DNA of 64,000 nt, from the NCBI GenBank assembly GCA_964574595.1, contig CAZNOF010000005.1:49686-113685 (forward strand), written 5' to 3'. Below, piece after piece: positions 1,575-52,710 of this stretch (positions are counted from its first letter, which is position 1; each line of letters opens with the position of its first letter). The stretch comes from an uncultured Pseudomonadales bacterium. GTDB lineage: Bacteria > Patescibacteriota > Microgenomatia > UBA1400 > PJMF01. The notes beneath the pieces were generated by a model. It made no database searches, was not told the origin of the DNA, and saw only the letters and a list, made by a program, of their open reading frames with translations. Both the position numbers and the translations under genes were made by a program.

Positions 1575-1724
1575 AAAAACCTCAGGGGTTCAAAAACAAA
1601 TAACGAGAACCCTATCACTGCACGAAATTGCTTTCATGGAGTCATAGGGTCAGGCATACAAGACTGACCTTGTTTTAAGATATGTAGGGTGGATACTTGC
1701 GCATCCACCCATTGTTCAAACTTG

Positions 1725-3005
1725 TTACTGACCCTTAGGGTCCGATTCACCGCGCCAGACAATGAAGTTGGCGGGCAGTTTTTCCGATACGGATCCCGGC
1801 ATAACTGCGTAGAAAATGGTGACGATCGGCCCATTTTTGGGCATAGGGACGAACAGGTTCAATGCTGAGAACTTCTCACCGACCTTGGGAGTACCATGGC
1901 CGGCCCACTTGTCCAATGAAGTTCCTGTGGTGTTTCCACCGCAAGACCAGCACGGGTTCAGGATAACGAGAACTTGGTCCATAAGAACCTTGTCCCCGCT
2001 GACGATGGTGACGACTGCTATGCCACCCATAAAGAGCGCCAGTTCGGGCGAATTGCCGCGTTCTGAATCAAAAGCATCTACGACAGGTGCCACTTTGTCC
2101 TTGCGGGCGAGTGACTGGGCCTTTTGCTGATCAAAACTGAACGGGAAAAAGTCCATGTTGCCAACGAGTACTCCATTCGACGCTTTAGGTGTTACCCCAA
2201 AGAGCGATGGCCAGAGGTATTGAGCCTCGTCCAATGCGGCGTCTCGCTGGAAATTGCAGCGGTTCAGGAAAGTCCAAGGGATGTAAGCATCCGCATGAAC
2301 ATTTTTTCCGGGCTCGTTAGCCTGTAGGGCTTCCGTTGGGAGGACCTGCCCGTTTCCTACAATGTCGAACCCCTTTGCGCAGGTGTTCTGGTAGGCGAAC
2401 GGAACTTGCACGAAGTCCACCTTGTCCCATTTCTGGGTTGGGGTGTCGACGCACAGGAACCCCATAAACATCGTCTGTTTCTGGATCGTGTAGAGCACAT
2501 CGTTATTCACGACGGCGCAACCCTGACCGACGGGGATGATGATCCCTGCGGACAGATCTGCTGCCAAGGCCGAAGCCTGACTGGAGATGGTTGCGGAGCG
2601 GGGTTGTTCCGCTGTCGGTTGAACGACGAGTGTCTGCGTTGCCGCAACGATTGTCGGAATTGCAGTTGACTGAGCCACGACTGTTGAGGTCGGGTTCGGT
2701 GCCTGCAGCGTTGATGTTGGTGCCTGAACTGTCGGCGTAAGCGCCTTTTGAGTGGCGATGTACGCGTCCACCTCAGCTTGCGAAACCGTGGGAATGGCAG
2801 TTGCCGCCTGAGCGGTGGCAGCCATTTGCGTGCCGGCAATTTCCGGGACCGTCAGGCCAGCTTGCGCCGGTGCTTGGGTTGGAGACATGCCGATTTGCGA
2901 GCCGGGAGTCGCGGTGATGAAGTTAACGGGTGCTGCGCCATTCGGCGAGCATCCCACGACGGCCAGAATGGCCAAGAACAGAACGATTGCGAGTTTCTTA
3001 CTCAT
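1725..3005 (-). CDS. Lipoprotein with a ~150-aa Thr/Pro/Ala/Gln-rich linker and a C-terminal globular domain of unknown function
   Basis: The start was reassigned to the internal ATG at 3003-3005 (MSKKLAIVLFLAILAVVGCSP; lipobox LAVVGC), which has an AGGT RBS upstream. The low-complexity TP-rich region is encoded by ~2504-2948. The DNA is GC-rich (~55%) relative to its surroundings. Confidence 0.6.
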   Translation of the reverse strand: MSKKLAIVLFLAILAVVGCSPNGAAPVNFITATPGSQIGMSPTQAPAQAGLTVPEIAGTQMAATAQAATAIPTVSQAEVDAYIATQKALTPTVQAPTSTLQAPNPTSTVVAQSTAIPTIVAATQTLVVQPTAEQPRSATISSQASALAADLSAGIIIPVGQGCAVVNNDVLYTIQKQTMFMGFLCVDTPTQKWDKVDFVQVPFAYQNTCAKGFDIVGNGQVLPTEALQANEPGKNVHADAYIPWTFLNRCNFQRDAALDEAQYLWPSLFGVTPKASNGVLVGNMDFFPFSFDQQKAQSLARKDKVAPVVDAFDSERGNSPELALFMGGIAVVTIVSGDKVLMDQVLVILNPCWSCGGNTTGTSLDKWAGHGTPKVGEKFSALNLFVPMPKNGPIVTIFYAVMPGSVSEKLPANFIVWRGESDPKGQ

Positions 3006-3055
3006 TTGCTTTTTACCTCTGACTGATTTGGACGAGATGAATAAACTGGATACGA

Positions 3056-3499
3056 CTAGGGTGAAACGCGGCGACGGAGAACGAAGCGGCGGTAAAGCCA
3101 CTTCAGAATTTCCCAGACCGACAGAACAAGTGCTGCCCCAACTAATCCGTAAAGAACAATTGGGTTAGAATTGATAAATGCCGATAACCGGTTCGGTTGG
3201 CCCGGATCGACCCAGAAAATTGCGGCCAGAATGGCCAAGGTAACAATGATCGCAACAGTACCAAAGACCGCTTTACGCGGATTGCGGCGGTTGTAGAGCC
3301 AGTTCGAGGTACGGTCAGACATAATGTATGCCGACACGAACCATTGAATGACTCCCCAGACCACAATCGTGATAATGACGGTTTGGACGGTATTATTGTT
3401 CATTGCCGCCACAACATCAGCGGGCGTGCCGTAAGGCAACACCGGTTGCGGTTGCTGCAAAATCTGCGAAAGACCACCAAGCAAAGCGAGATGTAACAT
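3056..3499 (-). CDS. Small polytopic membrane protein (147 aa, ~3 TM)
   Basis: Hydrophobic segments (VIITIVVWGVIQWFVSAYIM; VAIIVTLAILAAIFWV; IVLYGLVGAALVLSVW). It is GC-rich like the upstream lipoprotein gene. Confidence 0.45.
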   Translation of the reverse strand: MLHLALLGGLSQILQQPQPVLPYGTPADVVAAMNNNTVQTVIITIVVWGVIQWFVSAYIMSDRTSNWLYNRRNPRKAVFGTVAIIVTLAILAAIFWVDPGQPNRLSAFINSNPIVLYGLVGAALVLSVWEILKWLYRRFVLRRRVSP

Positions 3500-11285: not shown

Positions 11286-12017
11286 TTAGAACGAAATGGA
11301 AACAATTTGGTCGCCAATGACTAAACTTCTGACAACATCCATTCCTTGGGTAACTTTGCCGAAAATTGCGTGTTTGCCATTCAGCCAAGTGGTGTCACCA
11401 AAGGTAATGAAGAATTGACTACCACCCGTATTTGCTTGACCGGTGTTTGCCATGGCCACGATTCCTTCGCCCTCAAACTTCAAACTAGGATCGAACTCAT
11501 CAAGAATTGTGTATCCGGGACCGCCAGTTCCCCATGCATCTTTTTGAGAATCATCTTTGGTTTTTGGATCTCCAACCTGAGCCATGAAATCGGCAATAAT
11601 GCGGTGGAATTTAATTCCGTTATAAAAGTTACTTTTGGCGAGCGTTAAGAAGTTCGTGACGGTCAGAGGTGCTTTGTCTGGATAAAGCTCAATCACAATG
11701 TCACCTTTGTTCGTTTTGATGGTTGCTTGTTTGGCACTAATTGGCTGAAAGTCTTGCAATGTTTTCACTGTATTTTCCTCCGTAGTTACTTGATCTGATT
11801 TTGGGGCTGGTGATTGAATATCTTTTTGAAGTGTATTCGATAAAGACAAATCACCTTGGTTTTGACTACTGTTGTATTGTAATGCATTGTTGGCGGATTG
11901 GCTTTGGCCATTTTGCTGAACCGGTCTCAGCGGTTCAGTCTCAACAATCTTTGGTGCACAGCCAGAGAGGAAGAGAATAGATGCGGCTAGAGTAGAGATA
12001 AGTAAAAATGATTTCAT
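11286..12017 (-). CDS. ppiB: Cyclophilin-type peptidyl-prolyl cis-trans isomerase, lipoprotein
   Basis: Lipobox LFLSGCAP. The cyclophilin core is present (GIKFHRIIADFMAQVGDP; MANTGQANTGGSQFFITF; GKHAIFGKV). Confidence 0.8.
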   Translation of the reverse strand: MKSFLLISTLAASILFLSGCAPKIVETEPLRPVQQNGQSQSANNALQYNSSQNQGDLSLSNTLQKDIQSPAPKSDQVTTEENTVKTLQDFQPISAKQATIKTNKGDIVIELYPDKAPLTVTNFLTLAKSNFYNGIKFHRIIADFMAQVGDPKTKDDSQKDAWGTGGPGYTILDEFDPSLKFEGEGIVAMANTGQANTGGSQFFITFGDTTWLNGKHAIFGKVTQGMDVVRSLVIGDQIVSISF

Positions 12018-19258: not shown

Positions 19259-19332
19259 CGGGCTGTAGTTCAGATGGCTAGAATGCGCGCATGGGGTGCG
19301 CGAGGTCGTGGGTTCGAGTCCCGCCAGCCCGA
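19259..19332 (+). tRNA. tRNA-Pro (anticodon GGG)
   Basis: Hand-folded cloverleaf. Acceptor stem cgggctg/cagcccg with C1:G72 and discriminator A73, both bacterial tRNA-Pro hallmarks. D-stem gttc/gaat. Anticodon stem cgcgc/gcgcg with loop a-t-GGG-g-t (G37). T-stem gtggg/cccgc with T-loop ttcgagt. The CCA is not encoded. Confidence 0.85.
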
Positions 19333-20144: not shown

Positions 20145-20167
20145 GAACAAGTACGTGTCAAAATGCT

Positions 20168-20294: not shown

Positions 20295-21011
20295 CTATGA
20301 AGTCGCATATCCCGGCCAGCTGAGGCAGAAGGGCACCTTTTTATGGACTGTTCCAATGACGTTCGCCGTCGGTTCAAGGGAAATGATCATCGGTTGGTGT
20401 GGTGAGTCAATAAACTGGACTGACCAATCGACTGCAGACACTTCACGCCATCTTGGCGCCGTTTCATTACCATCGAAGGCCGTAAAAATGAGACGCCTTG
20501 GACTAAATTCGTAAAGACTTGGTGCAAATCCGGTTGGATAGGTGGCGACCATTTTCCCATCAGTCAGCGAAAAGACCGCAACCTGACCTTTGCCAGTATC
20601 TAGACTTTCTGCAACTGCGGCATAGGGATTGTTTAAGGAGATCTTCACCCAAGTATTCTTAGAAGATGTCACATACAGGAGCATCGGAATCGACTGAGGA
20701 TTTGACCAATTCAACACATAGATCATCTGGCCATACTTCCAGTGCGGCTTGATCAATGCCCAATCAGCGTTTTGACCCTCTAGATAGCAAGCATCGAACT
20801 TTGTGGTCTGGCTGGCCAGCAATGAGGCTGAGAGAGTGGGCAATGGTGAAGCCTGAGTGGGAACGAGATGGCTTCCGGGAACAGAAGAGAACACAGTCGT
20901 CTGATTTGCTGGAGGGCGCGGCTCAGGAGCCAAGTAGACAAGTAATGAGACTAGGGATAATCCTAGTAACATTCCGACAATAAAATGGGGTAATGGACGA
21001 TGTCGAGTCAT
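20295..21011 (-). CDS. Hypothetical secreted or membrane-anchored protein (238 aa)
   Basis: An N-terminal TM/signal (FIVGMLLGLSLVSLLVYLA) is followed by a P/S/T-rich stretch and a probable beta-rich extracytoplasmic domain. The gene is GC-richer than the background. Confidence 0.45.
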   Translation of the reverse strand: MTRHRPLPHFIVGMLLGLSLVSLLVYLAPEPRPPANQTTVFSSVPGSHLVPTQASPLPTLSASLLASQTTKFDACYLEGQNADWALIKPHWKYGQMIYVLNWSNPQSIPMLLYVTSSKNTWVKISLNNPYAAVAESLDTGKGQVAVFSLTDGKMVATYPTGFAPSLYEFSPRRLIFTAFDGNETAPRWREVSAVDWSVQFIDSPHQPMIISLEPTANVIGTVHKKVPFCLSWPGYATS

Positions 21012-32674: not shown

Positions 32675-32681
32675 ATAGTAA

Positions 32682-33635
32682 TTAGAACAAGTATAAGATG
32701 GTCATGGTCAACAGGCCAAACAAAAATATAGTGCTGAGTAACGGCTTATCTCGCAAGACTACTTTTTCTGGAGATTCACCTTCATTATCCTCATAGACTA
32801 ATTGAAGATATCTCATCACTCCAAAAATGACCAGTGGAACCGTAGCCATCAAGAGTTTTTGTGATTGCAGAGTTTTTGGCAATATTGTGTAGACACTTAA
32901 CAACCTACCGGCTGGAGAGACACTTTCAGTTTGGAAAGCAAATAGCGCGTAGGTTAACCAGGTCGCATTGGCAAACATGCCGGTGTATTGATCGAGCAGA
33001 CGTTCACTGTATCGTTTCAGCGTTTTTCGAGTTTCTCCCATCTCTTTCCCTTTCAGGAGAGTTCGTTCACTTTGTCGTTTCCCCACAGCTAAGAAGAGTG
33101 AGGCTGAGAGGACTGTCAATAAAAACCAAACGCTGGTGTGAAGATTCACAACCACAGCTCCGGCATAGATTCTCAGTAAAAAGCCGGCTGCAATTGATAA
33201 AACGTCAATAATGGCGATGTGCTTTAGTTTTTTGGCATAAAGGATTTGCAACACAAAATATGCTGCCACTGTCAGTCTGAAGAATGGTGAAAAAGAGAAA
33301 CTGGCTAAGAAGACAATCGCTAGACCAGCCGCGGCCACACAGGCAGCTACCGGAATTGGTAATGCTCCAGAAGCAATTGGACGCTTCTTTTTAAAGGGAT
33401 GCATCCGATCCGCTTCAACGTCCACAATGTCATTAATGATGTAAATCGAAGAAGTCAAAAAACAGAAAACAATCACCGCGAACGTAACGGTTAAGAAGTA
33501 AGGCAGTTCGTTGGCAGGCTGATAGAAAAAGAACCCAGAAAATGTAAGAGCTGCGTAGAGAGCTAAGTTCTTTATCCATTGCCGTGGTCGGGCGGATTTA
33601 GCAATGAGGTAAATGAGACTGTTTTCCATAATCAA
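32682..33635 (-). CDS. UbiA-family polyprenyl-phosphate phosphoribosyltransferase (decaprenyl-phosphate 5-phosphoribosyltransferase/DPPR synthase-like)
   Basis: PRQWIKN near the N-terminus and NDIVDVEADRMHPFKKKRPIASG, which matches the DPPR-synthase version of the UbiA Asp-rich motif. The protein has about 8 TM segments. Confidence 0.6.
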   Translation of the reverse strand: MIMENSLIYLIAKSARPRQWIKNLALYAALTFSGFFFYQPANELPYFLTVTFAVIVFCFLTSSIYIINDIVDVEADRMHPFKKKRPIASGALPIPVAACVAAAGLAIVFLASFSFSPFFRLTVAAYFVLQILYAKKLKHIAIIDVLSIAAGFLLRIYAGAVVVNLHTSVWFLLTVLSASLFLAVGKRQSERTLLKGKEMGETRKTLKRYSERLLDQYTGMFANATWLTYALFAFQTESVSPAGRLLSVYTILPKTLQSQKLLMATVPLVIFGVMRYLQLVYEDNEGESPEKVVLRDKPLLSTIFLFGLLTMTILYLF

Positions 33636-34711
33636 ATTCTTGTTTTGTTTGTTTGAATCTTCGCCCAGATCAGGAATCCAAAGACAGAACAGGTGACAAT
33701 TCCGAAGGTGATTACCTTACCTAAACTGCTCAAGTATAATGATAACACACCCAAAATAAGAGTCGTTAGCCAGTAAAAAATTGCGATCCTTCTGCGCCCC
33801 CAACCCAAGACATCCATCAGTTTATGATGTAAATGACCGCGATCACCCCAGAAAGGCGACTTACCAGCTGCCAATCTTCTCGCAATAGTAAAAATCGCAT
33901 CTGCTGTGGGAATGGCCAAGACCATGATTGTGGTAGCAATTTTGGCTCCAGAAAGAATTGACAAAACAGCTAGCAAAAAGCCAGCCAAGGAGCCAGCACC
34001 ATAACCAGGCATGATTTTTTGAGGATAGACGTTCCAGACTAAGAGTCCAGCAAATGAGCCTGCTGCTATTAATGCTAGCGCTTGCGTATTGAATTGACTT
34101 GGATCGTCGGCAAACCGGCCAGCCAGGAAGCTAATAAAGACTAATGCTATTGCCACAAAACCGGGCATCTGACCATCTACACCTTTGGACCAGTTCACGA
34201 TATTCATATTCCAAACTATGAAAAAAAGCGCTAAAAGATCAGATAAAATCCAAACTGAATGTTGCGTGCCGAAAAGTTGGAACGAGTAAATCAAGGTATC
34301 AAGATGAATGACACCCTGACCAAAAGGATTGGTGACATAGGCAATACCAATTCCAGATCCCACAACAATCAGAGCGGCAATCAACCCAACTCCAAGCCTA
34401 TAGAGTGGATGAATGTCTTTTACGTCATCAATGAAGCCAGTGATTGCCAGGAGAAGTGAGGCAAAAAGAATTGCTAAAAGATACTTATCAACGTGCAGAA
34501 AGAGGAATGAGCAGATCAGCAAACTACTAAAAATGACAATCCCGCCACCTCTTGGAACTGGCTGCTTATGTGTCGTTTTGACGTGAGTAGCAAGCTGTGG
34601 ATCTTCTACCCAACCGTGTTTTTTATACCAATAGATAATTGCTGGGGTAATCAAGAGGGCGAGTAAAAAACTGCAGCCAAAGAAAATCATATTAAGAGAT
34701 GATATAGACAA
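33632..34711 (-). CDS. Polyprenyl-phosphate N-acetylhexosamine-1-phosphate transferase (GT4 MraY/WecA family)
   Basis: A 359-aa polytopic protein with the GFIDDVKD motif and the cytoplasmic-loop organisation of MraY/WecA. It overlaps the downstream UbiA gene by 4 nt. Confidence 0.6.
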   Translation of the reverse strand: MSISSLNMIFFGCSFLLALLITPAIIYWYKKHGWVEDPQLATHVKTTHKQPVPRGGGIVIFSSLLICSFLFLHVDKYLLAILFASLLLAITGFIDDVKDIHPLYRLGVGLIAALIVVGSGIGIAYVTNPFGQGVIHLDTLIYSFQLFGTQHSVWILSDLLALFFIVWNMNIVNWSKGVDGQMPGFVAIALVFISFLAGRFADDPSQFNTQALALIAAGSFAGLLVWNVYPQKIMPGYGAGSLAGFLLAVLSILSGAKIATTIMVLAIPTADAIFTIARRLAAGKSPFWGDRGHLHHKLMDVLGWGRRRIAIFYWLTTLILGVLSLYLSSLGKVITFGIVTCSVFGFLIWAKIQTNKTRI

Positions 34712-36751: not shown

Positions 36752-38248
36752 TTAGACTTTTTCTGTGACGCGGTACTCGATATATTTCCCTAACATTAAT
36801 CTAGTATGAGCATCTAGACCAGGCAGGGCTGAGAAGAAGAATCCGATAATGGGTAAAAGTAAGAACTCAACAGGTTGCAAAATATACGAGAAAACGTTTC
36901 GCTTGTTTGGTCGAGGGGGTCTGTTCATTGCGTCAATCACAAAAATAACCAACATACTGATCAGTGACATGGTCAATAATCCAGAAGTTACTTGAGGCAA
37001 TCGAGTACCTAATGCTGTTCTAGCAAAAACAGGATTAAGAAGTGGCGGCAAAATTGCAGAGGTGGTAATTGCGAACCAGTTGACTGGCCACAAGAAATGG
37101 TCCTCAACAATTTTAAAGACGCGGATTGTTTTATCCCAAAATGGGACACCTTCAGACAGCACATACTGGCGAACAATGTAGGCGTCGTCACTAACACCCC
37201 ATGCCCAACGCACCAACTGTTGATACTGATTTGTCATAGCTGAGACGAAGCCCTTGGCTTCGGCAGCATCCGCATAGATTGGTAAGAAGATTGGTTGAAC
37301 CTCAAAATCGCCTTTTTTGGCAAAGTACGATTTAAAGAATAACCGATAATCTTCTGGAATAACGTCAGTATCCCAATAGCCAATGTCATCGACATGCTTC
37401 AAGGAAGTTGAGTAGGTAGAAAAGTTCACTAATCGATCTTTTCTCATTAAAATATAAAGTTGGGAAACAGAAAAAACTGATGCTAAAACGCGAATGGGAG
37501 GGTAGACCTTCCAAATATTATTATAAAAAACAATGCCGCCCTGCCAAATTTTATTGAATGGCTTGTCGGTTGTTAGGAAGTCGTGAGTGAGACTAGCAAA
37601 GTAGCTTTTGTGAAATAGTGCGTCAGCATCTTCACTCGTAATGGTAACTTTTTTGATATCTAAACCTTCTTGATCAATGAGCAATTTTTTAGCAGCCTTA
37701 GCACCCCAGCTTGTATTAGATGATTTACCTTTTACTTCACCCTGAATATCAGGATGTTCCGTTGTCCAGAGATCTCCAAACAAATGTCCAAACTCCTTTT
37801 TGAGTAAAATAGCTTTTTCTCGTGCGACTTCACCTTCTCGTTCTTCAAAAGAGAGCATAATGTGGAGACGTTTAATTGGGTATGTTTGTTCCGAGAGAGC
37901 CGCTAAGGTTCTTTGAAGCGTGGTCAACGGTTCTTGATAGGTTGGAATGACGATAATGTGATGAATACTGTCCCAAGTTTGAGGGTACTCTTCTTGCAAG
38001 TAGCCAATCCAGTTAAACTTCATGGAGGCTCTCATTTTAAAGTTAGCTACGATGGAAAGAATGGCGATCGAGACAGATCTGTAGAGCCAGTACACTGCAA
38101 AAGTGATCACGTAGTAAGCCACAATGGAAGGAAAGACAAACGAACCCCAGATTGGAAAGAGAATTAGTGACCAAGAAACAAATCCAGGCAAAATTTCTAA
38201 AAAGCGTTGGGTTCTGATTGGGTGACGACGAAAGTACGTTTTGATCAT
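36752..38248 (-). CDS. Membrane-embedded family 2 glycosyltransferase (GT-A fold with N- and C-terminal TM bundles)
   Basis: IVIPTYQEP and a SEDAD (DXD-like) motif in a central cytoplasmic domain, flanked by TM segments. Confidence 0.5.
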   Translation of the reverse strand: MIKTYFRRHPIRTQRFLEILPGFVSWSLILFPIWGSFVFPSIVAYYVITFAVYWLYRSVSIAILSIVANFKMRASMKFNWIGYLQEEYPQTWDSIHHIIVIPTYQEPLTTLQRTLAALSEQTYPIKRLHIMLSFEEREGEVAREKAILLKKEFGHLFGDLWTTEHPDIQGEVKGKSSNTSWGAKAAKKLLIDQEGLDIKKVTITSEDADALFHKSYFASLTHDFLTTDKPFNKIWQGGIVFYNNIWKVYPPIRVLASVFSVSQLYILMRKDRLVNFSTYSTSLKHVDDIGYWDTDVIPEDYRLFFKSYFAKKGDFEVQPIFLPIYADAAEAKGFVSAMTNQYQQLVRWAWGVSDDAYIVRQYVLSEGVPFWDKTIRVFKIVEDHFLWPVNWFAITTSAILPPLLNPVFARTALGTRLPQVTSGLLTMSLISMLVIFVIDAMNRPPRPNKRNVFSYILQPVEFLLLPIIGFFFSALPGLDAHTRLMLGKYIEYRVTEKV

Positions 38249-44482: not shown

Positions 44483-45457
44483 ATGCACGCGAAAAAAGAA
44501 GAAAATGAAATCTATTTCTTAACAGGAGCTGCCGGTTTTATTGGTGCCAATTTATTGCGTAGATTACTAGATGAATCTTGTGCAGTGCATATTCTCTTAA
44601 AAGAGTCATCAAATTGTTGGAGAATTGCTGAAGTCTTAAAACATCCAAAACTAACTGTTCACTACGGTGATCTCGCTGATCAGGAAGCACTCTCAGAGCT
44701 ACTGAGAAATGTGCAACCAACTGTCGTTTATCATCTAGCCACAAGAGGCGCTTACTCTTCTCAAAATGATCCCAAAGATATTTTTGAGACAAACCTTTTG
44801 GGGACTCTTCATCTGCTTGAAGTTGCCAGAGGCATGCCTCTCAAGCTATTTGTGAATACGAGCTCCACCTCAGAATATGGCAGCAAAAACCAGCCAATGA
44901 AAGAAGATGATGTGCTTGAGCCAGATAGTTTTTATGCAATTAGTAAAGTAGCTGCCACGCATGCTTGCCATCAGTACTATGTACAGTACTCAGTTCCGGT
45001 GGTGACTCTTCGCCTCTTCTCAGTCTTTGGACCATGGGAATCGCCAACCAGATTATTTCCCACATTGCTTGAATCACTTCGTTTGGGAAACATGATGAAC
45101 ATGGTGAAGCCAGAAACTGCCCGGGACTTTATTTTTATTTCTGATGTTATTGATCTTTATCGCAAGATTGAACTTCTGAGTAAGTTCCCAGGAGAAGTTT
45201 TCAACGTGGGATCCGGTAAACAAACGAGTCTCAAGCAACTGTCCGAAGTTGCCGTTCAAGTCACAAAGAAGAAAAGTCAGTTTGCCTGGAAAGCGGTACC
45301 TTCAAAAAGTTGGGACAAAGACATTTGGGTAGCTGATATGCATAAAACCTACAAGACATTGAACTGGTCAGCCAAAGTTTCAGTAGAAGAAGGTTTAAGA
45401 GAGTATTGGTCATGGTATTTGCATCATCATCAAATCTATCACTCTATGCTACACTAA
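44483..45457 (+). CDS. NAD-dependent sugar epimerase/dehydratase (extended SDR)
   Basis: GAAGFIGANL Rossmann motif and the YAISK (YxxxK) catalytic motif, in a 324-aa protein. Confidence 0.8.
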   Translation: MHAKKEENEIYFLTGAAGFIGANLLRRLLDESCAVHILLKESSNCWRIAEVLKHPKLTVHYGDLADQEALSELLRNVQPTVVYHLATRGAYSSQNDPKDIFETNLLGTLHLLEVARGMPLKLFVNTSSTSEYGSKNQPMKEDDVLEPDSFYAISKVAATHACHQYYVQYSVPVVTLRLFSVFGPWESPTRLFPTLLESLRLGNMMNMVKPETARDFIFISDVIDLYRKIELLSKFPGEVFNVGSGKQTSLKQLSEVAVQVTKKKSQFAWKAVPSKSWDKDIWVADMHKTYKTLNWSAKVSVEEGLREYWSWYLHHHQIYHSMLH

Positions 45458-45463
45458 TCGCCA

Positions 45464-46189
45464 ATGTCGTTCCGTCTCTCTTCTCTCAGTCGCACCCAGT
45501 TACGGCTTCGTCAGGAAATACTTGAGATAAGTCATCGGCATCATTTTCCACATTTGGGTTCTTGCTTAAGTATGGTCGACATACTTGATTCCATATATAA
45601 AGTGAAAAGACCGAACGACGTATTTATTCTTTCCAATGGTCATGCCGCAATCGCTTACTACGTGATTCTTAGAAAGAATGGACTATTAACAGAAAAAGAG
45701 GTTGATGAACTGATGGTTCATCCCGATGCTGCTCCTGAGCGGGGAATTTCGGTTTCTTCTGGGAGTTTAGGACAAGGCTTACCCATTTCAATTGGTTGGG
45801 CACTGGCTAATCGAAAGAGAAAGATTTTTTGCACCATTTCTGACGGCGAGTGTATGGAAGGGAGTATTTGGGAAAGTTTGAGAATAATTCAGGAACTGAA
45901 GTTAGACAATCTTTGCATAACCATTAATGCCAACGGTTGGGGAGCGTATCGACCTATTGATCTGTCATTATTGAAAAGGCAACTAAAGGCCTTACGATTT
46001 CTAGTAAAAGAAGTGAATGGGCATGACCTTCCCGAACTGCTTGCAGCTTTGAAAAGTCAAAAGAAACAAGGCTCAGAAGCCATGGAAATAATTTTTGCTA
46101 AAACGAATGTTGAACAGTATCCTTTTTTGAAGGGGCAGGCAGCGCATTATCATGTGATGACTCAAGAGAACTATGATTCAACTCGTTAA
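45464..46189 (+). CDS. Transketolase-like protein, N-terminal (TPP-binding) subunit
   Basis: HLGSCLSMVDIL...SNGHAAIAYYVIL matches the split-transketolase N-terminal half. Confidence 0.65.
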   Translation: MSFRLSSLSRTQLRLRQEILEISHRHHFPHLGSCLSMVDILDSIYKVKRPNDVFILSNGHAAIAYYVILRKNGLLTEKEVDELMVHPDAAPERGISVSSGSLGQGLPISIGWALANRKRKIFCTISDGECMEGSIWESLRIIQELKLDNLCITINANGWGAYRPIDLSLLKRQLKALRFLVKEVNGHDLPELLAALKSQKKQGSEAMEIIFAKTNVEQYPFLKGQAAHYHVMTQENYDSTR

Positions 46190-46676
46190 CCTACGCCACG
46201 AATTCGCAGAGTTAGTTCACGCTGAAATGCGTAATAATCCAGATGTCTGGGTGATAACTGGAGATCTGGGATATGGAATGTGGGACAAAATTATGTCAGA
46301 TTTTCCCGACAGATTTATAAATACAGGAGCTGCTGAACAAGCCATGATGGGACTGGCAGTAGGATTGGCACAGTCTGGCAAGATCCCGTTAGTTTACTCA
46401 ATTACTCCTTTTCTGTTGTATCGCCCATTTGAGACGATCCGGAACTACATTCATCAGGAGAAAATTCCAGTCAAGCTAGTTGGGTCGGGCCGGAATCGAG
46501 ACTACGAAAATGAAGGGTTTTCTCATTGGGCCGAAGAAGATACGGCAGTTATGAAGATCCTCTCAAATATTCACTCCTACTGGCCATCAGATTTAGCGGA
46601 ACTAAAAAAAGTTACGAAAAAAATGTTTCAGACAAATCAGCCCTTTTACATCAACTTAACGAAAGTAACAAAATGA
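46173..46676 (+). CDS. Transketolase-like protein, C-terminal (pyrimidine-binding) subunit, short
   Basis: ITGDLGYGMWD...NTGAAEQAMMGLAVGLAQSGKIPLVY matches the Transket_pyr domain. It overlaps the upstream gene by 17 nt, and its TGA stop overlaps the ATG of the next gene. Confidence 0.6.
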   Translation: MIQLVNLRHEFAELVHAEMRNNPDVWVITGDLGYGMWDKIMSDFPDRFINTGAAEQAMMGLAVGLAQSGKIPLVYSITPFLLYRPFETIRNYIHQEKIPVKLVGSGRNRDYENEGFSHWAEEDTAVMKILSNIHSYWPSDLAELKKVTKKMFQTNQPFYINLTKVTK

Positions 46677-47605
46677 AAAAGAAAAAACTAAGCGCTGTGA
46701 TTGCTTGCTACAGAGATGCTCAAGCTATTCCAGTCATGTATCAGCGCTTAACTCAGATGTTTAAAAAGTTAGCAATCGATTACGAGATTATCTTTGTCAA
46801 TGATGGTAGCCCTGATAATACGGAGGAAGTGCTTCAAAAGTTGGTAAAAAAAGATGCGCACGTGATTGGCATAAACCATTCCCGAAACTTTAGTTCGCAG
46901 ATGGCGTTTACGAGTGGGATGAATATTGCATCGGGAGATGCCTTAGTTTTCATGGATGGGGATTTACAGGATCCTCCTGAGCTAATTCCTGACTTTTTTA
47001 AAAAATATCAAGAAGGTTATGATGTCGTTTATGGTATCAGAGTGAAACGTGATGAAGTCTGGTATATGCAGCTCCTCTACAAGCTCTTTTACCGGTTTTT
47101 TTCAAGACTTTCCTATCTGCACATGCCGGTAGATGCGGGTGATTTTTCGCTGATTGATCGAAAAGTTATTAATGCCCTGAAACAGTTCCCAGAGCGGGAC
47201 CGATTTATTCGAGGCCTCAGAGCATGGGTTGGTTTTAAGCAAATTGGCGTGCCATATGTTCGACCAAAGAGAATGTTTGGTGTGAGTACCAATAATTTTT
47301 TCAAGAATTTCCGATGGGCAATTAAAGGTATTTTTTCATTCTCGTACGTACCATTGGAGATGATCACGAATTTGTCACTCATTGTTTGTATCGCCTCATT
47401 TCTCGGAATTATTTGGCAAATTATCGATCGCATCGTGGATCCGGGTACACCAAGAGGTATTACTACTATCTTGGTGGTAGTACTTTTTATTGGAGCAATC
47501 CAGCTTTTAGCTTTGAGTATCTTGGGTGAATATTTGATGAAGATTTTTGAGGAAGTGAAACAAAGACCTCCATATATTGTAAAAAGTATTTTTAAGAAGA
47601 TATGA
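46673..47605 (+). CDS. Polyprenyl-phosphate glycosyltransferase, GT2 Dpm1/GtrB/ArnC-like
   Basis: The start was reassigned to the ATG at 46673 (MKKKKLSAVIACYRD...). GT-A signature with FVNDGSPD and two C-terminal TM helices, as in GtrB/ArnC. Confidence 0.7.
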   Translation: MKKKKLSAVIACYRDAQAIPVMYQRLTQMFKKLAIDYEIIFVNDGSPDNTEEVLQKLVKKDAHVIGINHSRNFSSQMAFTSGMNIASGDALVFMDGDLQDPPELIPDFFKKYQEGYDVVYGIRVKRDEVWYMQLLYKLFYRFFSRLSYLHMPVDAGDFSLIDRKVINALKQFPERDRFIRGLRAWVGFKQIGVPYVRPKRMFGVSTNNFFKNFRWAIKGIFSFSYVPLEMITNLSLIVCIASFLGIIWQIIDRIVDPGTPRGITTILVVVLFIGAIQLLALSILGEYLMKIFEEVKQRPPYIVKSIFKKI

Positions 47606-49407
47606 TCTCTGTCACAGCTCTCAATGTGTTATTGCTACTAGCGGGCGCCGCTGGCATATTTATTTACCGACGCTTACACCCAACAAAAGAATTGAACCTC
47701 TTTTTGATACTCATGCTGTTTTCAATTGTTCCCTTAGTTAGTGTTTGGCGTAAGGGGAGTTACCAAAGTGGTGATTTCAATGATCACGTCTATTTCTTCA
47801 TGTCGTTTTACAATTCATTGCAGGATGGGATCTGGTTTCCTCGTTGGAGCGGCGGATTTTGTGGCGGATATGGATATCCACATATCCAATTTTTTTATCA
47901 TCTACCATATTATCTTGGATCCTTCTTTCACTACTTCTTAGGAACAAGTTTTGTTGATAGTCAAAAACTAGAAATATGTGTGTCTTTCTTTGGTGCAGCT
48001 GCAGCCATGTTTCTCTGGCTACGGACTGAGTTTGATCAGAAAGCAGCCTTTCTGGGGAGTGTGCTTTATATTTTGTCTCCTTATCTTTTAGCTGGAGCAC
48101 ATTTTCGAATTACACTTGGTGAAGGCTTAGGCTCTTTTTTGGTTCCTCTTATTTTGTGGTGTATAAACAAATCGTTTCAGTCAGTCAAACATAAATGGCC
48201 TTACTGGTGGGGGATAACTTTTTTTTACACCCTACTGATACTGGCGCACCACGTGGTTCCGCTACTGAGCTTGCCGTTTGTTGTGAGCTACTTTTTATTT
48301 AAATATTGGCAGTCTGAACGTAGAGATCGAAAACAATTTATTTATTTTGGCATCGCGCTTGCTACGTCTTTTCTCGTAACAAGTTACCATTGGGCGCCAA
48401 TTTTGCTTGAAACAAAGTGGATTCTCCAAAATCAGTTGCGGGTGATTGTTTTCCCTCCTATTTCATCCTATTTTTATTCTCCGTGGCGATACGGATTGCT
48501 AAATCAAGGTCATTATGGAGAACTGACTTGGACGGTGGGATATATGCACTGGCTAGTTATTCTGTTATCTACGGTAATACTCTTTGTTAAAAAAGTGACT
48601 AGGCGAGTAAAAGCGCGATTGTTATTTTTGCTGGGTTGGTTCCTGTTGCTTTTCATTATGATGCTGCCATTTACCGAGCCATTGTGGCTGGTAACACCAC
48701 TCCTGAATAATTTTCAGTTTGCATTCAGAATGCTTTTTTTAATTAATCTCGTTGTTGCTGCCTTGACTGCGGTACTGGTGTCTCAAGCTGAGGTTTTGTA
48801 TTTAACTTTTTACAGAAGCCTAAAGGGAAAACTTCCTTCAGAATTTCCAAGGAGACTATCAGATACTCACATCGGCTGGATAATTACATTATGTGTTTTT
48901 TCGACAAGTGCGTTTACCGTCCTGAATTGGGGACAGCGGACAGTGATTCCAGACTTAGATGACACCAAGTTGGAGTTGATGTTACCAAGTTGGTGTGACC
49001 AAGTGGCAATTCCGAATTGGCTCGATCAAAAAACATTTAAAAGCCTGCCGCCAAAGTCTGAGAATCTAGTAGTTGTAGATGGAACTGCCTTGATACAGCA
49101 AAAACAGTATGGAATGGAGGAACATGCCTATTCCGTCATTGCCACAGATTCGGCTACTCTTCGTGAAAACACTACCTATTTTCCTGGTTGGACGGCGTAC
49201 CTCGATGGGAAGATAATTCCAATCTCTATTTCTGATCGACAGTACTTTGGAATTATGCAAGTTGAAGTTCCGGCTGGCATGCATGATTTGCGTTTTGCAT
49301 ACGAACATACCGCTGTCCAAGTGCTCTTCGAAAAAATTAGTCTCGCTACGTTAGCAATCTGGAGTATAGTTACCGTTATCTGCCTCTATGAAAGCAAATA
49401 TGACTAA
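47602..49407 (+). CDS. Large polytopic membrane protein, probable GT-C-type glycosyltransferase (the Gtr-specific/YfhO-like partner of the GT2)
   Basis: A 601-aa protein with at least 12 TM segments and a large C-terminal extracytoplasmic domain. It overlaps the GT2 gene by 4 nt. Its position mirrors three-component Gtr-type glycosylation systems. Confidence 0.4.
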   Translation: MISVTALNVLLLLAGAAGIFIYRRLHPTKELNLFLILMLFSIVPLVSVWRKGSYQSGDFNDHVYFFMSFYNSLQDGIWFPRWSGGFCGGYGYPHIQFFYHLPYYLGSFFHYFLGTSFVDSQKLEICVSFFGAAAAMFLWLRTEFDQKAAFLGSVLYILSPYLLAGAHFRITLGEGLGSFLVPLILWCINKSFQSVKHKWPYWWGITFFYTLLILAHHVVPLLSLPFVVSYFLFKYWQSERRDRKQFIYFGIALATSFLVTSYHWAPILLETKWILQNQLRVIVFPPISSYFYSPWRYGLLNQGHYGELTWTVGYMHWLVILLSTVILFVKKVTRRVKARLLFLLGWFLLLFIMMLPFTEPLWLVTPLLNNFQFAFRMLFLINLVVAALTAVLVSQAEVLYLTFYRSLKGKLPSEFPRRLSDTHIGWIITLCVFSTSAFTVLNWGQRTVIPDLDDTKLELMLPSWCDQVAIPNWLDQKTFKSLPPKSENLVVVDGTALIQQKQYGMEEHAYSVIATDSATLRENTTYFPGWTAYLDGKIIPISISDRQYFGIMQVEVPAGMHDLRFAYEHTAVQVLFEKISLATLAIWSIVTVICLYESKYD

Positions 49408-50350
49408 ACCGCACTTTCATCAAACAGAGTGTGCCCTGTGTGGCTCAACAGATCGACATGATTATGAAATTGTCTATCCAGCCACCTACCTTCAGACTGA
49501 AGTTGAGAGTCTGTTTTCTGCCAGAAGACTTCCTGACGGAATTCACTCGCAAATTGTCAGATGTCTGAGAGACGGGCAAGTTCGCTCGACTCCTGTGCTC
49601 GAAAATTCAGTTCTTTCCAAGTTGTATCGCGAGAGCGAATTTACCTATCAAGAGGAAGTCACAAATTTGACTCAGACGTATATGAATGCTCTTGAAGATG
49701 TCTTGCCGTATCTGAAAGCGTCGGATAAGGTTCTGGAAATTGGCTGTGGATCGGGCTTCATGTTGTCGGCACTCAAAGCAAGAGGGTTTAAAAATGTTTA
49801 CGGAGTTGAGCCAAGTCAGAAAGCTATAGACAAAGCAGACAAATTTATTCAATCACGAATTACTCAAAAGCTGTTTTCAAGAAAACTTTACAAAGAAGAA
49901 ACATTTTCATTCATTTTCATTTTGCAAACCCTTGACCATATTCCTAACCCGAAAGAGTTCCTCGCAGACTGCCTAGCAGTTTTAAAACCTGGTGGGTTTA
50001 TTTTGTCCTATCATCATGATGTTTCTAGTTTGTCAGCGACTCTCCTAGGGGAAAAAAGCCCAATTTTCGATATTGAACATACCTATCTCTACGACCACCG
50101 CACCAGTTGTTTGCTTCTTGAAAAGAACGGTTTCATTGTGCGCAAAGCCTACTCACCCTTGAACGTACTGTCCTTGTATCACCTGGCTTGGTTAAGCCCT
50201 TTACCTACGTTAATGAAAAACTTTCTGCTGAAGGAAAATGCATTTTCAAAGCAAATGCTTCATTCAATTAAAGTGGAGATTCCCCTAGGTAATACCTGTA
50301 TTATTGGCCAAAAACCGAGAAGCGTCCCACGATCAGATAAAATAGTTTAA
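49388..50350 (+). CDS. Class I SAM-dependent methyltransferase with an N-terminal Cys-rich (zinc-ribbon-like) segment
   Basis: Motif I VLEIGCGSGFM and the post-I acidic residue. It overlaps the upstream gene by 20 nt. Confidence 0.65.
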   Translation: MKANMTKPHFHQTECALCGSTDRHDYEIVYPATYLQTEVESLFSARRLPDGIHSQIVRCLRDGQVRSTPVLENSVLSKLYRESEFTYQEEVTNLTQTYMNALEDVLPYLKASDKVLEIGCGSGFMLSALKARGFKNVYGVEPSQKAIDKADKFIQSRITQKLFSRKLYKEETFSFIFILQTLDHIPNPKEFLADCLAVLKPGGFILSYHHDVSSLSATLLGEKSPIFDIEHTYLYDHRTSCLLLEKNGFIVRKAYSPLNVLSLYHLAWLSPLPTLMKNFLLKENAFSKQMLHSIKVEIPLGNTCIIGQKPRSVPRSDKIV

Positions 50351-50359: not shown

Positions 50360-51244
50360 ATGTGGAAGCGCCTTCTCATTTTTGCCGTAGCTTTGGTGGT
50401 TGATGTCGCGTTGCTTCGCTGGGGGTGGCAAACCCAACAGTTCAATTATCTGACCGACATTGGTAAGCGGCTTTTTGAAGAGCCAATATTGCCTTGTACT
50501 ATTCCAATTAGATATCGGATTGATCAGATAGATCCGGAATTCAAACTTTCATCTGAGGACTTTATAAAGGATGCCTCAGCAGCTGCTCAAATTTGGAACA
50601 CAGCCAAGGGTAACCCAGTTTTTATCTACGATCCTCAAGGTGAGTTAAGCGTGAACTTAGTTTATGACGGTCGCCAAAAGCTGAGTGCCCAGATTAATCA
50701 AATGCAGAGTAGCTTACAAACAGCAGCAAAATCGTTAACTCCCCAAGAACAACAATTCAGAAAAGAAGTAGCCGCTTATGAACAAAAAGCGAGCGCCTTG
50801 AATGCAGAAATTGTCTCCTGGAATGAAAAGGGCGGTGCCCCGCAAGAAACTGCGGACCAACTGAATAATCGGGTGACCGAACTCAAGGCTGAAGCAGACA
50901 GACTCAATACTGAATCTGAACGATTAAACAAAATAAGTAGTAACTACAATGCTCAAGTTGGCACGCTTAATAAAACAGTAGACACATTTAACTCTCAACT
51001 GAATGAAAAGCCAGAGGAAGGTATTTTCATCGGTGACGAGAACAAAATTGAGATCTACTTCAATAATGGCAAGCAAGAACTGGTTCACACCTTGGCTCAT
51101 GAAATGGGTCATGCTTTAGGAATGAATCACGTTGATGACAAAAAAGCTATTTTATACGAATCGACAAATTTATCTGTTAAACCCTCGGAAAAAGACCTAC
51201 TCGAGCTAGAGAAAGCTTGTGCACCTCCAGCTCAAAAGAACTAA
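50360..51244 (+). CDS. Membrane-anchored zinc metalloprotease of the metzincin type with a coiled-coil stalk
   Basis: An N-terminal TM, a Q/E/N-rich coiled region and a C-terminal HTLAHEMGHALGMNHVDD (HExxHxxGxxH) motif. Confidence 0.55.
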   Translation: MWKRLLIFAVALVVDVALLRWGWQTQQFNYLTDIGKRLFEEPILPCTIPIRYRIDQIDPEFKLSSEDFIKDASAAAQIWNTAKGNPVFIYDPQGELSVNLVYDGRQKLSAQINQMQSSLQTAAKSLTPQEQQFRKEVAAYEQKASALNAEIVSWNEKGGAPQETADQLNNRVTELKAEADRLNTESERLNKISSNYNAQVGTLNKTVDTFNSQLNEKPEEGIFIGDENKIEIYFNNGKQELVHTLAHEMGHALGMNHVDDKKAILYESTNLSVKPSEKDLLELEKACAPPAQKN

Positions 51245-51269
51245 ACGAGCTGAAATTCTCGAGACAGTA

Positions 51270-51277
51270 CTGTATAA
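51270..51277 (+). promoter_or_regulatory. Extended -10 promoter element (TGTATAAT) giving a very short leader for the GH16 gene
   Basis: TGnTATAAT lies 11 nt upstream of the ATG at 51289, and no SD is present. Confidence 0.35.
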
Positions 51278-51288
51278 TCCCACTTCCT

Positions 51289-52317
51289 ATGAAAGAAAAT
51301 GAACAAAGACGAAAGTTACTAACTAGAAGAGAGTTTGGACAAATGCTTTGGCGTGCGGGTCAGGTTGGCCTGGCTTTAGAGTTAGGTAAACTCCCGTTTG
51401 TTAATGCACAAGATTCAGTTACTCCAACTCCAACTTCTGCAGAAGTAAAAGTCACCCCAGATATTGAAGAACTTTTCAACAAAGATCCTGACCTTTTGAT
51501 TGATTTCACTGCTATGGCTGAAGGTCCATTTGTTTCTGAAAACTTTAACGTTGATGAAGGTTCGATTATTAAAACTGAAGCACAGAATTACACGAAGGAC
51601 GCTAAAAACCTTAGAATTGAAAAATATACCGATCCTGCAACGGGTGAAACGTTTAACGTACTTGTTCTCCAAGCCGTCAAAGAAAAGAATGGTGATAAGG
51701 AATACACTTCCGCTCGCATTAACATGAAAGGTCTTCTCGACTTTACCTATGGCAAGATTGAAGTGACTGCTAAATTTCCAAAAGGCGCGGGGGTCTTCCC
51801 GGCTATTTGGCTCCGTTCAACTGACCAGACAAATAGTCAAAACCCAACTCCAGAGCAAGCAACCAATAAATTCAAGTGGGCACTTAACGGCGAGATCGAT
51901 ATCGCTGAGGAACAAGGTGCAGATCCAGGAATCATTAACTCAACAGCTCATTCATACGAGACTCTGAATGCTGGTGGAAATCCAAATGGTATGAAAACGG
52001 AAGTTGCTGACTCAGAAGATGCTTTCCATACCTATGGAGCTGAATGGAACGAAGATAAGATTGTCTTTACCGTCGATGGAGAGGTAACCAATGAAGTCAT
52101 CATTCAAAGAGAGGCTGATGGCTCGTTTGATCCTGCTAAAGCTCCATGGGCCCACGACTTCCACTTAGTCATTAACCTGGCAATGGGTGGAAACTGGGCA
52201 CAAGACGTCGCAAAACGTAAAGGACTTGACCTGCCAAATGGTATTGACGATTCGCAAGAGGCGAATTGGAAATTCCTCATTAAAGACGTCAAGTACTTCA
52301 AGCTGGCTGCAGCCTAG
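51289..52317 (+). CDS. Glycoside hydrolase family 16 (beta-glucanase/laminarinase-like) with a twin-arginine-like signal
   Basis: The start was reassigned to the ATG at 51289 (MKENEQRRKLLTRREFGQ..., an RR motif followed by a hydrophobic segment). GH16 catalytic motif GEIDIAEE. Confidence 0.6.
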   Translation: MKENEQRRKLLTRREFGQMLWRAGQVGLALELGKLPFVNAQDSVTPTPTSAEVKVTPDIEELFNKDPDLLIDFTAMAEGPFVSENFNVDEGSIIKTEAQNYTKDAKNLRIEKYTDPATGETFNVLVLQAVKEKNGDKEYTSARINMKGLLDFTYGKIEVTAKFPKGAGVFPAIWLRSTDQTNSQNPTPEQATNKFKWALNGEIDIAEEQGADPGIINSTAHSYETLNAGGNPNGMKTEVADSEDAFHTYGAEWNEDKIVFTVDGEVTNEVIIQREADGSFDPAKAPWAHDFHLVINLAMGGNWAQDVAKRKGLDLPNGIDDSQEANWKFLIKDVKYFKLAAA

Positions 52318-52332: not shown

Positions 52333-52710
52333 CTATTGTTTCAAAGTTCCAATTTTCAAACTGGTTAATGCCGCTTGAGCATCTGGTCCTTCGTGTTGTG
52401 GCTGTCTACTGAAGAGAGACGTCGCGTCACGGCCGCAGCCCTTGAGAATTTCTTCCCCTCCTGGGTGGTTTGGAATGAAGCTCGTCACGTTGTATACCGA
52501 GCCGCTGACAACTAACCAACAATCTGAGGCCGAGCCGTGCTGTTGCACATCAGACATGCTGTACTCAGCATTTGCTGCAGGAGACGTTTGCGTTGTCGAT
52601 GAATCCGTAGGAGAAGGAGAAGCTTCGATTGTTCCTGAATTGACAGTGGGCTGAGCGGAACAAGCAGTAAACAGTACTAAGGCTGGGAGAAACAGAAGCA
52701 GTTTTTTCAT
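52333..52710 (-). CDS. Lipoprotein with a cytochrome b5-like heme-binding domain
   Basis: Lipobox LFTAC. The b5 signature is WLVVSGSVYNVTSFIPNHPGGEEILKGCGRDATSLF, with a second His downstream. Confidence 0.6.
   Translation of the reverse strand: MKKLLLFLPALVLFTACSAQPTVNSGTIEASPSPTDSSTTQTSPAANAEYSMSDVQQHGSASDCWLVVSGSVYNVTSFIPNHPGGEEILKGCGRDATSLFSRQPQHEGPDAQAALTSLKIGTLKQ

Follow-up and report, generated by a model that had tools for sequence, protein, structure and literature searches.

Characterised members of glycosyltransferase family 39 (GT39) are protein O-mannosyltransferases (PMTs), which modify Ser/Thr residues in Pro/Ala-rich disordered regions, including linkers and the N-termini of lipoproteins (PMC11727336, PMC12757957, PMC12331936). 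The actinobacterial GT39 enzymes Pmt (Rv1002c and SCO3154) are fed by Ppm1. In Streptococcus pyogenes as well as in Streptococcus pneumoniae, GtrB and a GT-C glycosyltransferase of the YfhO family glucosylate extracytoplasmic Ser/Thr-rich disordered regions, which shields them from proteolysis (PMC12041528). Three-component pentofuranose systems consist of a polyprenyl-phosphate phosphoribosyl synthase, a flippase, and a GT-C; they include the mycobacterial decaprenylphosphoryl-arabinose (DPA) pathway and the arabinosylation of pilin by TfpW in Pseudomonas aeruginosa, which shows that such donors serve protein O-glycosylation (PMC11194591; bioRxiv 10.1101/2020.04.19.049825). Here, I analysed a 64,000-nucleotide stretch of contig CAZNOF010000005.1 (assembly GCA_964574595.1), hereafter the window, from a lineage of Patescibacteria. 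It encodes two exported proteins with long low-complexity segments, a lipoprotein and a secreted protein with immunoglobulin (Ig)-like domains, together with a GT39 homolog and a GtrB-type family 2 glycosyltransferase (GT2). With a probability of about 0.6, both segments are long disordered tethers or stalks of surface proteins and plausible acceptors of O-glycosylation, for which none of the encoded enzymes is singled out.

In a literature search, no paper on protein glycosylation, GT39/PMT, or decaprenyl-phosphate phosphoribosyltransferase (DPPR synthase) in Patescibacteria or the Candidate Phyla Radiation (CPR) was found. CPR bacteria live attached to other microbes, and surface proteins are thus central to their lifestyle. 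Should the stalks carry sugars, O-glycosylation of disordered regions by GT-C enzymes would reach, beyond Actinobacteria and streptococci, a third group that is very large and deep-branching, and metaproteomic data of CPR organisms would need different searching.

Probable tether and stalk of the two exported proteins

The lipoprotein gene and the other features discussed here are listed in Table 1. The probable ATG start codon of the lipoprotein, inside a longer open reading frame (ORF), is preceded by AGAGG about 10 nt upstream. The N-terminus, MSKKLAIVLFLAILAVVGC, has two Lys residues followed by a hydrophobic core and by VVGC, which ends in Cys19 and matches, by eye, the PROSITE-type lipobox pattern [LVI][ASTVI][GAS]C within the first ~35 residues. 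The nucleotides at 2504-2948 encode residues 20-167. In residues 20-164, Thr, Pro, Ser, and Ala amount to 54% as against 24.6% in the proteins of the window (binomial p 1.5e-14, or 3e-10 once multiplied by all positions). The Shannon entropy of the tether is 3.49, below the 1st percentile (3.69) of windows of equal length, and only 4.8% of the residues are charged. A preliminary description of the window had called such linkers Thr/Pro-rich; the low complexity and the T/P/S/A richness hold, but this one (Ala 21, Thr 14, Pro 10, Gln 10, Val 9, and Ser 8%) is better called Ala/Thr/Gln/Pro-rich. It resembles lipoprotein tethers and the wall-spanning Pro/Thr-rich regions of Gram-positive surface proteins in being a low-complexity, low-charge segment between anchor and domain that is expanded by repeats in a relative, although ~145 residues is unusually long for a lipoprotein. 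Tandem Repeats Finder detected no DNA tandem repeats in either linker of the window. The C-terminal domain has no match in Pfam or NCBIfam.

For the Ig-like protein, six homologs were collected, and the resulting alignment of seven sequences was used for AlphaFold2. Its signal peptide ends in QQVFA with cleavage before GGG, and this site (A-x-A followed by GGG) is kept in all six aligned sequences that are full-length, P0128 being truncated at the N-terminus. In the model, beta-sandwich domains occupy residues 35-132 and 150-244 with a predicted local distance difference test (pLDDT) score of ~85, followed by the stalk at residues 245-330 with a pLDDT of ~40 and then by a C-terminal helix. The best Foldseek matches of the model were S-layer proteins (EA1 and SbsB) and the adhesins intimin and SraP. 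Pro, Ala, Ser, and Thr make up 77% of residues 244-322 (p 1.4e-22; entropy 2.92). Thus, the presence of two exported proteins with long low-complexity segments rich in these residues is confirmed at p 1.5e-14 and p 1.4e-22. Scans of the window revealed neither an LPXTG sortase motif nor a type IV pilin motif, so that other anchors or glycosylation targets of these kinds are absent locally. Unlike in Gram-positive surface proteins with an LPXTG sortase signal, the anchor of the Ig-like protein may be its conserved C-terminal helix.

In the proposed arrangement, the tether of ~145 residues would join the lipid-anchored Cys19 to a variable domain of ~260 residues, and the P/A/S/T stalk of ~85 residues would join the two Ig-like domains to the C-terminal helix. 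Both would be flexible, poorly structured spacers that keep the folded domains off the membrane and carry them through the wall, and both may also be acceptors of extracytoplasmic O-glycosylation. By analogy with the described systems, the chance that such stalks carry some sugar in this organism seems a little better than even.

Table 1. Features of the window discussed in the text
Feature	Position	Strand	Basis or remark
Lipoprotein gene, 426 aa	1725..3005	-	ORF 1725..3101(-), probable ATG start at 3005
C-terminal Cys-containing domain of lipoprotein, ~260 aa, unknown fold	1725..2503	-	No Pfam or NCBIfam match
Putative tether, ~145 aa, Ala/Thr/Pro/Gln/Ser-rich, low-complexity, between lipid anchor and folded domain	2504..2948	-	Composition statistics
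Lipoprotein signal peptide with lipobox VVGC, Cys19	2949..3005	-	MSKKLAIVLFLAILAVVGC; pattern matched by inspection
Membrane protein, 147 aa, directly upstream of lipoprotein, same GC-rich cassette	3056..3499	-	GC ~0.50
Cyclophilin-type peptidyl-prolyl isomerase (PPIase) lipoprotein, similar tether	11286..12017	-	~75-aa Gln/Ser/Asn/Thr-rich segment after lipobox
Membrane-anchored protein, similar tether	20295..21011		
GT39-family (PMT-like) GT-C glycosyltransferase, 575 aa	30947..32674	-	Pfam, motifs, profile search
UbiA-family DPPR-synthase-like protein, 7 bp upstream of GT39	32682..33635	-	NCBIfam, PDB
Glycos_transf_4 (WecA/MraY-like) polyprenyl-phosphate sugar-1-phosphate transferase, 4-bp overlap with UbiA	33632..34711	-	Pfam/NCBIfam, synteny
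Membrane protein within operon, 117 aa	34692..35045	-	
Second GT-C-like membrane glycosyltransferase, 542 aa	35079..36707	-	Pfam PMT 27.8 bits, just over cut-off; kept in 45 loci
Membrane GT2-like protein, 498 aa, conserved operon member	36752..38248	-	Weak Glyco_trans_2_3 match below cut-off; synteny
Extended short-chain dehydrogenase/reductase (SDR) epimerase/dehydratase and split transketolase-like enzyme	44483..46676	+	Upstream of GtrB-type gene
GtrB-type polyprenyl-phosphate glycosyltransferase (GT2)	46670..47605	+	Pfam, NCBIfam, PDB; longer form 46526..47605
YfhO/PTPS-related GT-C membrane protein, 601 aa; start overlaps GtrB-type gene by 4 bp	47602..49407	+	hhalign
Methyltransferase downstream of GT-C gene	49388..50350	+	Pfam
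GH16 protein, similar tether	51217..52317		Twin-arginine motif in signal peptide by eye
Cytochrome-b5-like lipoprotein, similar tether	52333..52710		
Secreted surface protein, 355 aa: signal peptide, two Ig-like beta-sandwich domains, stalk, C-terminal amphipathic helix	52870..53937	+	Alignment and AlphaFold2
P/A/S/T-rich stalk, residues ~245-330	53602..53859	+	Composition, pLDDT ~40
Conserved C-terminal helix (...FFxHxWKR), possible anchor	53860..53937	+	Alignment and AlphaFold2

The lipoprotein cassette and its counterpart in a relative

A search with the full-length lipoprotein among the best 8000 word-sharing candidates returned the query itself only, the low-complexity words of the linker having probably swamped it. 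When the C-terminal domain was searched exhaustively with HMMER, 1.84 billion representative proteins yielded no relative better than E~1e-4, and two matches at that level (RCC1-repeat and Big_2 proteins) were too weak to use. At the level of sequence, the lipoprotein is an ORFan. Its gene has a GC content of 0.555 and a GC content at third codon positions (GC3) of 0.617 (z=3.5-3.7 against the genes of the window), and GC3 is 0.63 for the C-terminal domain taken without the linker. Together with the small membrane protein gene directly upstream, it forms a two-gene cassette at 1650-3500 with a GC content of 0.50-0.60, as against ~42% (0.42) in the window overall.

The composition of the linker might mainly reflect a foreign, high-GC origin of the gene, unrelated to the glycosylation enzymes of the host. 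The base composition of the cassette and of the C-terminal domain would fit such an origin, as would the failure to find homologs among the representative proteins. However, the closest relative found, the JGI contig Ga0105047_10000140 (L084), whose neighbouring genes encode proteins 51-86% identical to those of the window, has a small membrane protein and then a 400-residue lipoprotein in the same syntenic slot (L084 10087-11717). The 147-residue membrane protein is homologous to the 123-residue protein in this slot (E 3e-8). The lipoprotein of the relative has a lipobox (LTSC), a P/T/A/S linker, and a variable domain, and its GC3 is also high at 0.58; genes average a GC3 of ~0.41 in both genomes, while the cassettes reach ~0.58-0.63. 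In addition, the stalk of the Ig-like protein has a similar composition and native codon usage (GC3 0.32). A foreign origin as the main source of the linker composition is quite unlikely. A recent one-off horizontal insertion of the lipoprotein gene was also considered; it is weakened by the GC-rich counterpart cassette in the same slot of the relative.

The two lipoproteins have little sequence in common. Their signal peptides and linkers align weakly (E 0.003), and the linker of the relative consists of 2.9 copies of a 123-bp tandem repeat with 95% identity. Their C-terminal domains share only colinear short motifs (PWTFL, CxxCxxNTG.S, and W.G..D.P), the global alignment having a z of 2.3-2.7 against shuffles. 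Since a counterpart occupies the slot and the C-terminal domains are barely recognisable as related, the gene is read as that of a putative fast-evolving surface lipoprotein with a conserved position. More distant relatives showed no lipobox protein when the 6 kb downstream of the conserved neighbouring gene were inspected. As a possible cause of the divergence, which covers the entire C-terminal domain, a diversity-generating retroelement was weighed; in Pfam scans that covered part of the ORFs, none of the large ORFs of the window received a reverse transcriptase annotation.

The GT39 enzyme

As the preliminary description had claimed, a GT39 homolog is encoded in the window, with both Pfam scores above the cut-offs and intact catalytic motifs. 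The protein scores 64.8 bits with PMT (PF02366; cut-off 22.7) and 77.4 bits with PMT_4TMC (PF16192; cut-off 32.4), and a profile of 24 homologs matched Pmt1, Pmt2, Pmt4, and 9I5K only in the PDB. Its IFDEVYH (D37 and E38) aligns with VFDEVHF of 9I5K, a solved fungal PMT, and SPRIMFFYHY (R490 and F493) aligns with GRQLFLHHY, which gives the R-x-x-F motif. D134 and D147 also align with Asp residues of 9I5K, and either could match D176 of the Mycobacterium tuberculosis enzyme (MtPMT). Residues D37, E38, H73, D134, D147, R490, and F493 are invariant across the 24 homologs. The same holds for LHPPFAKY (H73, P74, P75, and K78), a candidate for the HPP(L/F)xK motif with its conserved His, although the HMMER alignment sets the fungal HPPLGK against NEPPEPS, probably owing to an insertion. 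The invariant residues correspond to essential residues of the PMTs of M. tuberculosis (D74, D176, R441, and Y444, with D74/E75 as the DE motif of the first external loop and D176 in external loop 2) and Streptomyces coelicolor (D113, D233, and R510, with H159 as the possible counterpart of H73) (PMC12331936, PMC12757957). The R-x-x-Y/F motif in loop 5 is R441/Y444 in MtPMT and R649/F652 in ScPmt1.

Thus, membership in GT39 is secure as a sequence assignment. Like the actinobacterial Pmt, the protein falls within the bacterial size range (~500-575 residues), has no MIR domain, and carries the DE motif, the conserved Asp residues of the second loop region, and R-x-x-aromatic. The candidate acceptors are also alike: Ser/Thr residues that lie in Pro/Ala-rich disordered stretches, either of Sec-exported proteins or, directly after the lipobox, of lipoproteins. 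Orthology with the characterised bacterial Pmt is not secure, since the protein scores 97.4 bits with the NCBIfam equivalog of bacterial Pmt (NF058602), below the cut-off of 800. It differs from the actinobacterial enzymes in being patescibacterial and only distantly related to them, and in the Cys-rich insertion that its large external loop carries.

This insertion (residues ~310-365; ...QGxCYCxQ...GGCKRL...) lies where eukaryotic PMTs carry the MIR domain, and two of its Cys residues, C317 and C327, do not vary among the 24 homologs.

The operon of GT39 and its conservation

A tightly packed series of co-oriented genes ends with that of GT39; in order, it encodes MetRS, TatD, the 498-residue GT2-like protein, the 542-residue GT-C-like protein, the 117-residue protein, Glycos_transf_4, UbiA, and GT39. 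In M. tuberculosis, pmt (Rv1002c) presumably likewise lies a few genes from metS (Rv1007c) and tatD (Rv1008). The UbiA-like protein scores 226 bits with NCBIfam NF008978 (cut-off 207), and 131 bits with the mycobacterial structure 8J8J versus 25 bits with other UbiA enzymes in the PDB. The 542-residue protein has no sequence match in the PDB.

Among 75 species-level genomes with enough upstream sequence, 50 carry a co-oriented UbiA gene immediately upstream of GT39. Nearly all of the 50 have the WecA/MraY-like gene just before UbiA, and ~40 of them keep the entire gene order of the window (30947-40556). In a neighbour-joining tree, the UbiA-linked GT39 genes, that of the window included, form one large clade. 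In a basal patescibacterial clade, GT39 has no adjacent UbiA gene and neighbours a short soluble GT2 of ~240 residues, of the polyprenyl-phosphate-sugar synthase class. It appears from the gene neighbourhoods that a GT-C adjoins a synthase of lipid-sugar donors throughout, and that in the clade of the window this synthase is of the phosphoribosyl type. In the synteny comparison, no GT2 of the Ppm1 type was found in the GT39 operon of this clade.

Basal-clade GT39 and GT2 genes lie at L047 2420-4609, L053 9075-11293, L065 7458-11215, L067 6332-11293, and L072 6379-11290; further GT-C-like membrane proteins are often present at the basal-clade loci.

The neighbours hint at a pentose donor or at a non-protein acceptor. 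From gene order, one may speculate that GT39 in the clade of the window has switched its donor to a polyprenyl-phospho-pentofuranose made with the co-operonic UbiA, and attaches ribofuranose or arabinofuranose to Ser/Thr of the stalks. As in the pentofuranose systems, a UbiA-type, DPPR-synthase-like gene lies directly upstream of a co-oriented GT-C gene and is kept there in many genomes. On the other hand, the GT-C of the window is a GT39, and Pfam and NCBIfam scans of the operon from GT2 to GT39 detected no phosphoribose phosphatase, MATE flippase, or DprE1/DprE2-like epimerase. GT39 is a family known for mannose transfer only, and the UbiA product could just as well be used by the second GT-C instead of GT39. 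The donor switch is quite improbable. If it has taken place, this GT39 would be something other than a mannosyltransferase, and CPR bacteria would have their first described system of protein glycosylation. The operon of WecA-like protein, DPPR synthase, and GT39, kept in 50 of the 75 genomes, seems the most useful lead for further work; it leads to a prediction on donor chemistry, with a pentose ladder (+132) set against a hexose ladder (+162).

The GtrB-type glycosyltransferase and its probable partner

The GT2 that the preliminary description had taken for a Ppm1 homolog turned out to be of the GtrB type. It matches Synechocystis GtrB (5EKP) over its full length, including the C-terminal membrane part, with 253 bits (E 5e-74), and ArnC in the PDB with 131-148 bits, whereas dolichol-phosphate (Dol-P)-mannose synthase (DPMS) of Pyrococcus furiosus is matched with 59 bits and over residues 5-130 only. 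In NCBIfam, PgfS was best with 250 bits, below the cut-off, and ArnC gave 156 bits. The 601-residue protein whose gene overlaps the GT2 gene had no direct Pfam match; hhalign aligned it over 505 columns (probability 100%, E 8e-40) to one family, in which 8 of 10 members carry PTPS_related (PF10131) and 3 of 10 carry YfhO (PF09586). It is probably a member of this superfamily and not necessarily an ortholog of PgtC2. From the overlap of the two genes, this GT-C is the more likely partner of the GtrB-type GT2.

The linkers had been supposed to be O-mannosylated in the actinobacterial manner, by GT39 with polyprenyl-phosphate-mannose from this GT2. The enzyme itself is a genuine GT39 with conserved catalytic residues, and its actinobacterial relatives do use linkers of this kind as substrates (PMC11727336, PMC12757957). 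The basal clade, with GT39 beside a short GT2, shows that the logic of a PMT and its donor synthase is present in the phylum. In two pairs, P0126/P0020 (1.28 Mb) and P0130/P0089 (1.12 Mb), a homolog of the Ig-like protein and a homolog of GT39 agree in the length of the longest contig, which suggests that they occur in the same assembly in both cases. However, 15 kb separate the GT2 gene of the window from the GT39 gene, which is on the opposite strand, and translational coupling ties the GT2 gene to that of the other GT-C, while the conserved operon partner of the GT39 clade is the DPPR synthase. Moreover, the window holds neither a GDP-mannose gene nor a Ppm1/DPM1-type GT2, and the operon of GT39 differs from the actinobacterial case in its UbiA and WecA/MraY-like members. 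Given also the missed Pmt equivalog cut-off and the patescibacterial lineage, wiring as in Actinobacteria is not borne out, and O-mannosylation through GT39 and this GT2 is unlikely.

O-glycosylation of the linkers by the GtrB-type GT2 and the YfhO/PTPS-related GT-C (46670-49407), in the manner of GtrB/PgtC2 or Pgf, is about as unlikely, perhaps marginally less so. Similarity to GtrB over the full length, the best NCBIfam match to PgfS of the protein-glycosylation operon of Streptococcus mutans, and the 4-bp overlap with a YfhO/PTPS_related GT-C all point this way. As in streptococci, a synthase of the GtrB type for undecaprenyl-phosphate sugars stands beside a GT-C of the YfhO superfamily, the envelope is monoderm-like, and S/T-rich disordered regions lie beside folded domains in lipoproteins and membrane-associated proteins. 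The streptococcal pair glucosylates Ser/Thr-rich disordered regions, those of the PPIase lipoprotein PrsA included (PMC12041528), and among the proteins of the window, too, is a PPIase lipoprotein whose polar tether is long. PPIase lipoproteins are known as glycoproteins, namely PrsA in streptococci (PMC12041528) and a PPIase in Cellulomonas/Corynebacterium. Unlike in streptococci, the genes of the window overlap, the GT-C has diverged strongly (it shares only ~20% identity with relatives bearing the Pfam signatures), and the stalks are richer in Pro/Ala than the streptococcal poly-Ser/Thr tracts. The pair is near GT39 in few related loci, and the acceptor class is unreadable from sequence, since the YfhO family also acts on teichoic acids.

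The flanking genes for an epimerase/dehydratase, a split transketolase-like enzyme, and a methyltransferase suggest an unusual sugar, and on this route the GtrB-type pair might attach a modified sugar made by them. The region from 44483 to 50350, with five kinds of genes on one strand, is a possible module for such a sugar. In the split transketolase-like enzyme, the N and pyrimidine-binding halves are separate overlapping ORFs.

Probable spacers with or without sugars

The spread of Ser/Thr/Pro-rich segments was assessed in 1,196 ORFs from the window and 80 related loci, all 80 from GT39-positive assemblies of Patescibacteria/CPR. A segment was counted where 30-residue windows held at least 60% Ser+Thr+Pro. 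ORFs with a single N-terminal hydrophobic segment were classed as exported type and ORFs without hydrophobic segments as cytoplasmic, by a crude classifier that misfiled both focal proteins. Such segments were found in 8.9% of the exported-type ORFs and in 0.5% of the cytoplasmic ones (odds ratio 18, p 2e-6). The preliminary description had proposed to look for an enrichment of such linkers in genomes with GT39. An enrichment was seen in exported as against cytoplasmic proteins; since all 80 comparison loci are GT39-positive and there is no negative control, the count is no test of an association with the enzyme. In the window, similar tethers occur in the cyclophilin-type PPIase lipoprotein, the cytochrome-b5-like lipoprotein, the GH16 protein, and the membrane-anchored protein (Table 1).

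Several points weigh against the stalks as disordered acceptors of O-glycosylation. S/T/P-rich linkers are widespread in exported proteins of bacteria with or without such enzymes. The linkers taken alone are ordinary features of exported proteins, and their co-occurrence with glycosyltransferases within 64 kb, put forward as a pointer to an O-glycosylation system, is not specific and carries little weight. The tether of the lipoprotein holds much Ala/Val/Ile. The single-sequence AlphaFold2 model of the lipoprotein is uninformative at a pLDDT of 32 and gives no check on the disorder of the tether. Wall polymers or lipids, and not proteins, could be the acceptors of both GT-C modules: the WecA/MraY-like initiating enzyme in the GT39 operon suggests a glycopolymer pathway, and YfhO homologs glycosylate teichoic acids (cited in PMC12041528). 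Finally, although four homologs of the Ig-like protein keep the P/T/S/A composition of the stalk with unrelated sequences, the stalk and the C-terminal helix are swapped in P0127 and P0128 for an Asn/Tyr/His/Gly repeat (NNHYNNGYN...) that is free of Ser and Thr. From this comparison, what is constrained is the character of the stalk and not its sequence, and some relatives can do without Ser/Thr there.

A stretch with the Asn/Tyr/His/Gly repeat lies at L081 5679-6566.

It is a real possibility, somewhat short of an even chance, that the linkers are unmodified spacers and that cell-wall glycopolymers or lipids are all that the GT-C systems serve. The unconstrained stalk sequence fits this, and so does the linker of L084, whose expansion by recent tandem duplication is typical of spacers selected for length. 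The GT39 operon, with its WecA/MraY-like transferase, membrane GT2, and other GT-C, resembles a polymer pathway. Against unmodified spacers, all monoderm lineages that have GT39 or GtrB/YfhO-type systems and were studied by experiment had glycosylated extracytoplasmic S/T-rich disordered regions (PMC12041528, PMC11727336). Among the proteins encoded by the genome are at least three GT-C enzymes, along with no fewer than two synthases of lipid-sugar donors. Characterised GT39 enzymes are not known to act on anything but proteins. I therefore prefer to regard both segments as probable disordered tethers that may accept sugars, with the GT39 module and the module of GtrB-type GT2 and YfhO-type GT-C roughly equally likely to be responsible.

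Other features of the window

GC and GC3 are also elevated at 19259-22017, where three unannotated ORFs adjoin tRNA-Pro(GGG) at 19259-19333, and at 54008-57775, where an amidohydrolase-like gene is followed by two adjacent AspRS/AsnRS-like genes (GC3 0.50-0.54). On the reverse strand at 61947-63956 lies an AT-rich gene (GC 0.34) for a fragment of a KAP-family P-loop NTPase whose long C-terminal region has no annotation; the gene continues beyond the ORF start and differs in composition from its neighbours. At 4515-5747 on the reverse strand, directly downstream of ftsE/ftsX, lies a gene for a coiled-coil protein with a C-terminal Peptidase_C39-like domain. This arrangement is kept in all relatives retrieved, and in L089 and L090 a second, partial copy comes after it.

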